From an uncultured delta proteobacterium (GTDB lineage Bacteria; Myxococcota_A; Polyangia; Haliangiales; Haliangiaceae): a stretch of DNA of 10,077 nt. This document shows, in pieces, positions 9,736 through 9,935 of the stretch (its first letter is position 1; each line of letters starts with the position of its first letter). The stretch lies in the NCBI GenBank assembly GCA_900696455.1, contig CAADGB010000081.1, positions 1-10,077 of the forward strand. The letters run 5' to 3'. Below the pieces are notes generated by a model. The model saw nothing but the letters and a program-made list of their open reading frames with translations, was not told the DNA's origin and did not search any database. Made by a program: the position numbers and the translations under genes.

Positions 9736-9772
9736 GGCCCACGGCGTGGGCGCACGGGTTGAGAGACAGGAG

Positions 9773-9843
9773 AGCCGGTCGCCGGAATCGAACCGGGGCA
9801 GGCTGCTTACGGGGCAGCCCCTCGCGCCAGCGAGGCGACCGGC
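9773..9843 (-). tRNA. tRNA-Thr(CGT)-like (71 nt, C33), upstream of rsr
   Basis: Perfect acceptor GCCGGTC/GACCGGC, D-arm CTCG-CTGGCG-CGAG, 6-bp anticodon stem GGCTGC/GCAGCC with loop CCCGTAA, T-arm (C)CCGG-TTCGATT-CCGG(C) effectively 4 bp. Confidence 0.5.
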
Positions 9844-9864
9844 GAGCGAGCGCCGGACCAGGAG

Positions 9865-9935
9865 CGCGGCACACGGGACTTGCACCCGCACGACCGGGGT
9901 GGAGGCCCGGGGTGCTGCTGTTACACCAATGCCGC
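9865..9935 (-). tRNA. tRNA-Gly(TCC)-like with T-loop UGCAAGU and C33, upstream of rsr
   Basis: Acceptor GCGGCAT/GTGCCGC, T8, D-arm GTGT-AACAGCA-GCAC, anticodon arm CCGGG-CCTCCAC-CCCGG, T-arm GCGGG-TGCAAGT-CCCGT. Confidence 0.5.

Follow-up and report, generated by a model that had tools for sequence, protein, structure and literature searches.

Y RNAs contact the protein Ro60 through a short motif that was published as GNCGAAN0-1G in bacteria and as GGUCCGA in vertebrates, and those of the YrlA type mimic tRNA (PMC4201824). A second described system are long arrays of tRNA genes, of which a unit is defined as 20 or more tRNA genes with a density of no less than 2 per kb (PMC4758250), and among protein genes, an HNH gene is the one most frequently found in linkage with them (PMC8421152, PMC5966550). 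According to published work, L-arrays are supernumerary and spread by horizontal transfer, and translational stress induces them, as described for Anabaena (PMC8421152); their published neighbourhoods are rich in RNA-processing genes (PMC8421152, PMC4758250, PMC5966550). Here we analyze a stretch of 10,077 nt from an uncultured delta proteobacterium of the Haliangiaceae (contig CAADGB010000081.1, positions 1 to 10,077, assembly GCA_900696455.1; hereafter the window), which contains rsr, the gene for the Ro60 ortholog Rsr, in the midst of tRNA genes. We consider it probable that rsr, an HNH gene and a Y RNA are embedded in a single-strand operon of 28 tRNA genes of the L-array type, and that Rsr exerts feedback at the leaders of the two mRNAs.

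A first-pass annotation of positions 9737-9935 had suggested that two tRNA-like genes and a palindrome directly upstream of rsr could be Y-RNA-like partners of Rsr or co-transcribed regulators. Part of this proposal stood up in a comparison with 106 rsr loci (1.7 Mb in total; ids L001 etc.): the palindrome is conserved and carries a Ro-type signature, a small Y RNA lies between the two flagged genes in relatives, and a candidate Y RNA is encoded on the same strand as rsr. The part that did not hold concerns the tRNA-like genes themselves, and for the flagged interval the message is soberer, since these are array tRNAs and not Y RNAs.

rsr and an HNH gene within a tRNA array

The rsr gene (9723..8128, minus strand) encodes a protein of 531 aa with TROVE and vWA_Ro60 domains (Pfam, 1e-42 and 5e-68, respectively). 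Its score against the NCBIfam model RNA-bind_Rsr is 607.8 bits, under the equivalog cut-off of 900, and the closest relatives of the protein, from Kofleriaceae/Haliangiales (Myxococcota) metagenome-assembled genomes (MAGs), are up to 84% identical, in line with an origin of the window from a Kofleriaceae-type myxobacterium. At default settings, ARAGORN predicted 24 tRNA genes, each of them on the minus strand of the window, and a relaxed threshold added four more (relaxed ARAGORN or sub-threshold Rfam matches, minus strand): tRNA-His(GUG) at 7359-7429 and tRNA-Ile(GAU) at 7436-7508, both with a cytidine at position 33 (C33), tRNA-Met(CAU) at 7516-7586 with a reduced D arm, and a class II tRNA-Ser at 5954-6039. 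The resulting 28 genes occupy 5.3 kb (9935..4653) on a single strand and form, by number and density, an array unit or L-array as defined above. Two of them precede rsr, and the 26 others, from Asn to Glu-UUC, follow it (8062..4653, minus strand; 22 default and 4 relaxed predictions). The Rfam gathering score for tRNA (RF00005, 29 bits) was reached by only 13 of the 24 array tRNAs called by default. Within the downstream part lies a gene for an HNH endonuclease of 184 aa (6811..6257, minus strand; Pfam HNH_5 1e-15, HNH 2e-14), which was also called as a 184-aa gene on Logan contigs.

The arrangement (Tyr-Gln-Phe-Lys-Gly)-Gly(tcc)-Thr(cgt)-rsr-Asn-Glu-...-Leu-[HNH gene]-Ser-... is conserved in dozens of related loci and recurs in many Kofleriaceae/Haliangiales MAGs, and at least 10 tRNAs surround rsr in 37 of 60 Myxococcota-type loci. 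Outside this group, rsr lies within or beside arrays of 11-26 tRNAs in Chloroflexota, Dormibacterota, Actinomycetota (Gaiellaceae) and IMG/VR viral contigs (L055, L056, L069, L071-L073, L093 and L100). Because such loci occur in several other phyla and on viral contigs, the link between rsr and tRNA arrays is not confined to myxobacteria. No sigma-70-like promoter or intrinsic terminator was detected on either strand of 4500..10077, and just 48 nt separate the tRNA-Thr gene from the ATG of rsr, from which we infer that the array constitutes a single transcription unit.

Ro-type helices in a candidate Y RNA and in two mRNA leaders

As Ro signature we regard a GGGCCGR strand in a helix with a bulged C, in which GGGC-C-GR pairs with YU-GCCC; its 5' strand fits the published contact motif. 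Across the comparison set, the pattern GG[GT]CCG[AGT]-N5-12-GGTTAYC gave 130 matches, of which 121 are located on the rsr strand and 9, all in L058, on the opposite strand, and the matches cluster within a few kb of rsr. The window contains exactly one strict match to GGGCCGR-N-GGUUAYC (7862..7841), and Ro-type signatures are found at three of its sites, namely an RNA at 7864..7702, a hairpin in the leader of the HNH gene and the palindrome in front of rsr.

The first of these is a candidate Y RNA of 163 nt (7864..7702, minus strand; ortholog alignments A2 and A9), which is located 1.9 kb from the flagged genes and exactly fills the spacer between tRNA-Glu(CUC) (7940..7865, with encoded CCA) and tRNA-Arg(ACG) (7701..7626). 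In L001, L002 and L004, the end of the corresponding RNA lies within about 2 nt of the downstream tRNA as well. Since the ends coincide with tRNA boundaries, RNase P and the tRNA 3'-end machinery would be expected to release the RNA. Its Ro helix is formed by a 5' strand GCGGGCCGG (7864..7856) and a 3' strand CUCGUCCGU (7710..7702), with GCGGGC-C-GG paired to CU-C-GUCCGU, and most of 27 family members retain this geometry with its bulged C; a few of the 3'-strand picks are unreliable. The helix was assessed by direct counting of pairs, because RNAalifold pairs the GGGCCG strand locally and not with the 3' strand. A CUGCCC at the 5' end of tRNA-Arg had been considered as the 3' strand and was rejected, because the ortholog alignment shows CUCGUCCGU in this role. 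In single-sequence folds of the spacers, stability was not significantly above that of shuffled sequences (z -1.3 to -1.7). From its position beside rsr on the same strand and its contact strand in a bulged helix, we regard 7864..7702 as a candidate Y RNA in the broad sense.

Within this RNA family, conservation is highest in an internal block, CCGUAACUAUAACGG(U/A/G)CCUAAGGUAGCGA(A), which resembles helix 69 of 23S rRNA. Relatives carry CCGUAACUAUAACGGUCCUAAGGUAGCGA(A), 29-30 nt that are 100% identical to E. coli 23S rRNA (E 2e-12 and 7e-13 for the blocks of L013 and L021), and blastn located the block in the annotated 23S rRNA of every one of 5426 E. coli genomes, at a median of seven places per genome. 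We take the block to be helix 69 (upper stem, loop and 3' strand) together with the strand next to it, at about nt 1908-1937 of the E. coli molecule. It is present in 27 loci of Myxococcota and, in two cases, Armatimonadota, always beside rsr and on the rsr strand, and since Rfam detected no rRNA match in L013, the blocks are not rRNA genes. In the window, the corresponding segment lies at 7843..7815 (minus strand); its loop is degenerate (ACCG-AACUCUAU-CGGA), and it matches CCUAAGGUAGCGAA exactly. A wider mimicry of 23S domain IV, considered for GGCUGUCUC and GUAAGAGCG, was dropped, as blastn-short returned only short, non-colinear words beyond the block of 29-30 nt. In the literature searched, judged by titles and abstracts, no paper in which 'helix 69' and 'Y RNA' are mentioned together draws a link between them.

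Ro-type helices are combined with tRNA in another way in distant phyla, where we noticed RNAs of 120-155 nt near rsr that have a normal tRNA acceptor stem, D arm and T arm and in which the anticodon arm and loop are replaced by a closed Ro-type helix, YUUGCCC-loop-GGGCCGR, followed by GGUUAYC. There are 26 such RNAs in 18 loci of several phyla and none in the window; examples are L038:12040-12166, L013:14015-14138, L055:7768-7898, L063:8990-9119 and L058:13095-13567 (minus strand). They represent a topologically un-permuted counterpart of YrlA: the YrlA model (RF02553, gathering score 69 bits) reached only 30.5 bits on them, in a permuted register across tandem copies, and the modules of L058 gave only sub-threshold matches to YrlA, sbRNA and Deinococcus_Y_RNA.

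A smaller Y RNA is encoded nearer to rsr in relatives. Between the Gly and Thr genes of L001, L002, L004, L005 and L059, alignment A1 contains a mini Y RNA of about 70-100 nt (GCGGGCCGAUGCGCCAGGGUUAUCGA...CUCGUCCGC), and in the window just a 20-nt spacer separates the two genes, the mini Y RNA having been deleted. The segment UGGUCCGGCGCUC (9859..9847, minus strand) is probably a remnant of its 5' strand, a weak assignment made by position. L003 shows the opposite loss, with the mini Y RNA kept and the Gly gene gone; the modules are gained and lost independently.

The existence of a 15-nt palindrome abutting the Shine-Dalgarno sequence of rsr, as described in the first-pass annotation, was confirmed. 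With 7+1+7 nt, gcccacggcgtgggc (9751..9737) is perfect as far as its odd length permits and unique in the window, where 0.32 matches would be expected at up to two mismatches, and its last base lies one nucleotide from the Shine-Dalgarno sequence GGAGG (9735..9731) that precedes the ATG at 9723. In the RNA, it would form the hairpin GCCCAC-GCC-GUGGGC with a bulged C9736 and a further pair C9752-G9735 (9753..9731, minus strand). The part that contains the Shine-Dalgarno sequence, GGGCCGGAGG (9740..9731), is invariant in 7 of 7 close relatives, and the flanks vary; the upstream arm forms the hairpin, with a compensatory CCCGC/GCGGG version in L003. A covariance model of the rsr leader (model R1) identified the element in 39 loci (E<=0.01), immediately in front of the rsr start. 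In these, 91% of the cells are paired, A-U and G-C are swapped at 27:12, and there is a bulged C, with the pair that follows it retained in 38 of 39. Two Armatimonadota loci (L051 and L053) and further myxobacterial loci have a textbook CUUGCCC...GGGCCGA hairpin as rsr leader, followed by the Shine-Dalgarno sequence. We propose that the palindrome, which overlaps the ribosome-binding site, may act as an operator for Rsr.

The HNH gene is preceded by a similar element, the closed Ro-type hairpin UUGCCCGC-AUGGU-GCGGGC-C-GA (6899..6873, minus strand). It is the top match in the window of model R2, which was built from Y-RNA helices of other loci only (25.1 bits, E 1.4e-4). In most of 27 relatives, a hairpin of this kind is located after the last tRNA-Leu; in L001-L004 it abuts the Shine-Dalgarno sequence as GGGCCGGAGAAAGGAA..AUG. 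In the window, GAUCCGUCAUG precedes the ATG of both HNH and rsr. Because the Ro-type strand sits in both leader hairpins, free Rsr would be expected to repress both mRNAs.

At the other end of rsr, between its stop codon and tRNA-Asn, an inverted repeat forms a stem-loop of 12 bp (8094..8065, minus strand) that stops 2 nt short of the tRNA. Among the 27 sites listed from relatives, nearly all have a hairpin of 9-13 bp a few nt upstream of tRNA-Asn, with position kept and sequence different, and the stem-loop is likely the 3'-terminal protective hairpin of a processed rsr mRNA. The 48-nt gap between tRNA-Thr and the ATG, the negative search for promoters and terminators and the hairpin before tRNA-Asn would be consistent with an rsr mRNA that is cut from a tRNA precursor and protected at both ends.

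This last feature also favors the main rival of the operator proposal, according to which a hairpin beside the Shine-Dalgarno sequence could just stabilize the mRNA 5' end. The rsr palindrome and the HNH hairpin would then be 5'-end stabilizers or processing landmarks only, like a Ro helix in appearance but without a role for Rsr, as a matching hairpin guards the other end of the rsr mRNA, G+C-rich hairpins are common in the genome and model R2 scores the rsr leader weakly. We consider this rather unlikely, since the GGGCCG(G/A) strand is invariant beyond the needs of stem formation, with the bulged C and the next pair kept in 38 of 39 loci, the same strand defines approximately 130 Y-RNA modules, the HNH hairpin fits the Y-helix model significantly, and the Armatimonadota leaders have the hairpin in its textbook form.

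Several observations weigh against our interpretation of the three sites as Ro-type elements. The heptamer GGGCCGR is not enriched in the window, which has a G+C content of approximately 74% (15 found vs 14.9 expected), and the case for a Y RNA is consequently built on position and conservation. The candidate Y RNA of the window has GGGCCGG instead of GGGCCGA, with GGGCCGA/G/U among its relatives, and the Rfam models Y_RNA, YrlA and Deinococcus_Y_RNA did not match it even at E<=10, nor was it recognized by any other Rfam family. In the helix-69 segment of the window, the loop is mutated and a 14-nt exact match is retained. The 5' arm of the rsr leader is GC-GCCCAC rather than YU-GCCC, and model R2 ranks this leader second in the window with 13.4 bits and E~0.1, in a different register. 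The pairing that this register implies, of GGGCCGG with a CUGUCU downstream of tRNA-Thr, was dismissed as accidental, its 5' partner not being conserved in relatives.

The array tRNAs and the pair upstream of rsr

The tRNA-like genes that the first-pass annotation had noted directly upstream of rsr are present as described on the same strand: tRNA-Gly(UCC) (9935..9864, minus strand; ARAGORN, Rfam tRNA 43.3 bits, which passes the gathering score) and tRNA-Thr(CGU) (9843..9772, minus strand; ARAGORN, not reported at the Rfam gathering level) lie 140 and 48 nt upstream of the rsr ATG, inside the distance of <4 kb used for YrlA. Their non-canonical character was likewise borne out. Both have C33, with the anticodon loops CCUCCAC and CCCGUAA, respectively, and lack an encoded CCA; tRNA-Gly(UCC) has the T-loop UGCAAGU and a D-loop without G18G19, and tRNA-Thr(CGU) has an aberrant D-arm and, as read from the sequence, a C-C mismatch in the T-stem, and retains the T-loop UUCGAUU and a D-loop GG. 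The best match of the latter within the tRNA clan is tRNA-Sec with 36 bits, under the gathering score of 47 bits for that family. The universal combination of U33, T54-Psi55-C56 and G18G19 is thus not found in this pair.

Dozens of related loci have both genes and the leader hairpin in matching positions, which argues that they did not arise by chance. In an RNAalifold alignment of 21 sequences, tRNA-Gly(UCC) shows double compensatory changes in 13 of 18 pairs with an invariant UCC, and among 29 sequences tRNA-Thr(CGU) shows double changes in 9 of 15 predicted pairs, with an invariant CGU and three invariant first acceptor pairs (G-C, C-G and C-G); the relatives concerned have Rsr proteins 63-84% identical to that of the window. 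By sequence, the flagged genes are genuine tRNA genes of an aberrant, lineage-conserved design, neither Y RNAs nor pseudogenes.

That the two genes might instead encode Y-RNA-like ligands of Rsr, YrlA-like mimics of tRNA that do not decode, was suggested by their location within 220 nt of rsr on the same strand, by the C33, the T-loop with G55 and the weak Rfam scores, by the tRNA mimicry of YrlA (PMC4201824) and by the fusion of tRNA-like bodies to Ro-binding helices in other loci. We consider this very unlikely. Inspection of the sequences and searches with regular expressions found neither a GGNCCGR strand nor a bulged helix in either gene, and the contact motif GNCGAAN0-1G is likewise absent from both, its only trace being UGGUCCGG in the 20-nt spacer between them. 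Both fold into an ordinary cloverleaf with closed acceptor stems and free acceptor ends, not into the permuted form of YrlA, and the best YrlA score in the window, 20.8 bits compared with a gathering score of 69, is located elsewhere (5880-6002). In addition, the stems covary around anticodons and first acceptor pairs that do not change, and the aberrant traits of the two genes are shared across the whole array of 28.

Indeed, neither C33 nor the altered elbow is peculiar to the rsr-adjacent pair. C33 occurs in 9 of 24 tRNAs of the window (4653-9935, minus strand), and across loci L001-L060 it is fixed by isoacceptor, mostly in G34 family-box tRNAs (Pro-GGG 17/17, Gly-GCC 25/31, Ala-GGC 8/10, Val-GAC 13/17, Ile-GAU 20/30, Leu-GAG 16/25). 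The altered elbow, a T-loop UGC(A/G)A with G55 combined with D-loops like AACAGCAG without G18G19, is present in 6 of the 24 (5107-5179, 5664-5736, 5754-5826, 5853-5926, 7000-7076 and 9864-9935, minus strand). All of 616 UUC-type T-loops are accompanied by a D-loop GG, and each of 111 D-loops without GG by a UGC-type T-loop, a covariation that suggests a swapped tertiary pair and not decay. Decaying pseudogenes had been a conceivable explanation for the array including the flagged pair, given that only 13 of 24 genes attain the Rfam gathering score and that U33, G18G19 and encoded CCA are missing. With frequent compensatory substitutions and conserved anticodons across relatives as distant as stated above, with C33 conserved by isoacceptor and with the strict covariation of D-loop and T-loop, we regard this explanation as extremely improbable. 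Arrays can therefore carry tRNAs of a systematically altered design.

Another explanation starts from the array as a whole. It might be a horizontally acquired back-up or anti-toxin set of tRNAs, with Rsr serving mainly in the quality control of its aberrant tRNAs, which would be prone to misfolding, and binding these as substrates in its central cavity, not as Y-type ligands. The reported properties of L-arrays (PMC8421152) and the occurrence of rsr with arrays in Myxococcota, Actinomycetota, Chloroflexota, Dormibacterota and viral contigs would agree with this, and C33 and the altered elbow could favor misfolding or evasion of nucleases. On the other hand, the Y-type leader helices and the copy of helix 69 are left without explanation, and the conservation of the aberrant features per isoacceptor together with the D-loop/T-loop covariation suggests stable folds. 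We consider quality control by Rsr possible, if on the doubtful side, and compatible with Rsr feedback in an L-array-type operon, not exclusive of it.

Two further observations concern the upstream end of the array. With C33, the anticodon loop of tRNA-Gly(UCC) reads CCUCCA, the anti-Shine-Dalgarno core, and is complementary to the GGAGG of rsr 130 nt downstream; this loop is conserved in the subclade of the window. A pairing between the two was set aside, as the complementarity is probably a mere consequence of the UCC anticodon. Beyond tRNA-Gly(UCC), a direct repeat of 40 nt is present in two 100% identical copies (9951-9990 and 10038-10077, 87 nt from start to start), which occupies the position of the relatives' tRNA-Gly(gcc). 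On the minus strand, both copies contain the hairpin GCCCCC-GAA-GGGGGC, and the second extends to the end of the window. Thirteen public contigs encode an identical Rsr; all are 2-5 kb long, and those listed break off within the terminal repeat, 257 nt ahead of the start codon of rsr. At the other end of the window, an ORF with delta-60 repeat/DUF5122 beta-propeller domains lies at 114-1436 (plus strand), and the region of 1.4-4.6 kb contains only long overlapping ORFs, none with a family match. In a megablast search of the whole window against phage and plasmid collections, no match was obtained.

Proposed regulation and comparison with known systems

In the model that we propose, the whole array would be transcribed as a single precursor, and RNase P and the tRNA 3'-end enzymes would cut at each tRNA to release the tRNAs, the 163-nt Y RNA and the rsr and HNH mRNAs, the rsr mRNA being capped by the leader hairpin and by the 3' hairpin that ends 2 nt before tRNA-Asn. 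Rsr would bind the GGGCCGR bulged helix of the Y RNA, whose inner domain, in relatives, would present the copy of helix 69, presumably to engage a helix-69-recognizing factor or a ribosomal site. Free Rsr may repress the rsr and HNH mRNAs via the Ro-type hairpins that overlap or precede the Shine-Dalgarno sequences, and Y RNAs would titrate Rsr. Only tentatively do we put forward the complete scheme, in which Ro60 is wired into a supernumerary tRNA operon, a helix-69-mimicking Y RNA tethers Rsr, Rsr represses its own gene and the HNH gene with Y RNAs as anti-repressors, and all components derive from one precursor. If it applies, the helix-69 tether, by way of the 30S decoding-centre bridge, helix-69 modification enzymes or recycling factors, would imply a direct role of Ro60 in ribosome surveillance.

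Most delta-proteobacterial Y RNAs had been missed in the survey of 2014. A simple strand-specific signature finds approximately 130 candidate Y RNA modules around rsr, and a Y RNA family with an exact helix-69 copy of 29-30 nt as effector domain points to a concrete partner on or around the ribosome. In addition, the ribosome-binding site of rsr carries an element that may serve as a feedback operator, and the locus links Ro60 to long tRNA arrays, about which little is understood.

The proposed processing has parallels in mitochondrial polycistrons and in MALAT1-mascRNA, where tRNAs or tRNA-like structures punctuate the precursor. Here too, the ends of the non-tRNA products are the ends of tRNAs, so that RNase P and RNase Z would release them; this likeness is one of geometry, and in contrast to the mitochondrial and MALAT1 cases, the precursor would derive from a bacterial chromosomal operon and yield a Y RNA and two mRNAs. 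The proposed feedback resembles autogenous operators that mimic the main RNA ligand of a protein, as in ribosomal-protein operons and in the tRNA-like operator of the thrS leader. As in these systems, a copy of the RNA-binding site at the Shine-Dalgarno sequence of the protein's own mRNA would allow feedback and competition, as a candidate recognized from sequence. The difference is that an operator-like hairpin precedes a second gene, HNH, as well. In the literature searched, no autogenous operator for Ro60/Rsr was reported.

With the L-arrays described so far (PMC8421152, 2021; Tran et al. 2016, PMC4758250; Morgado and Vicente 2018, PMC5966550), the array of the window shares the number of more than 20 tRNAs, the density of more than 2 per kb, the location on one strand, the linked HNH gene, the patchy distribution across phyla and the existence of similar arrays on viral contigs. 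Unlike in the published L-arrays, rsr and Y RNAs are embedded here, and many of the tRNAs have C33 and a remodelled D/T-loop elbow. Two of the array papers (PMC8421152, PMC5966550) do not mention Ro60, TROVE or Y RNA, and a full-text literature search for 'tRNA array' and 'Ro60' retrieved no paper.

Among the known Y RNAs, YrlA/YrlB and Deinococcus Yrn1 (Chen et al. 2014, PMC4201824) are likewise located beside rsr on the same strand, with a 5' strand that fits the contact motif and forms a bulged helix with the 3' strand, and with a second, 'effector' domain that imitates another cellular RNA. In contrast to them, the candidate Y RNA at 7864..7702 has no tRNA-like D/T domain, fails the Rfam models and is delimited by the tRNA genes on either side, and its family imitates helix 69 of 23S rRNA.

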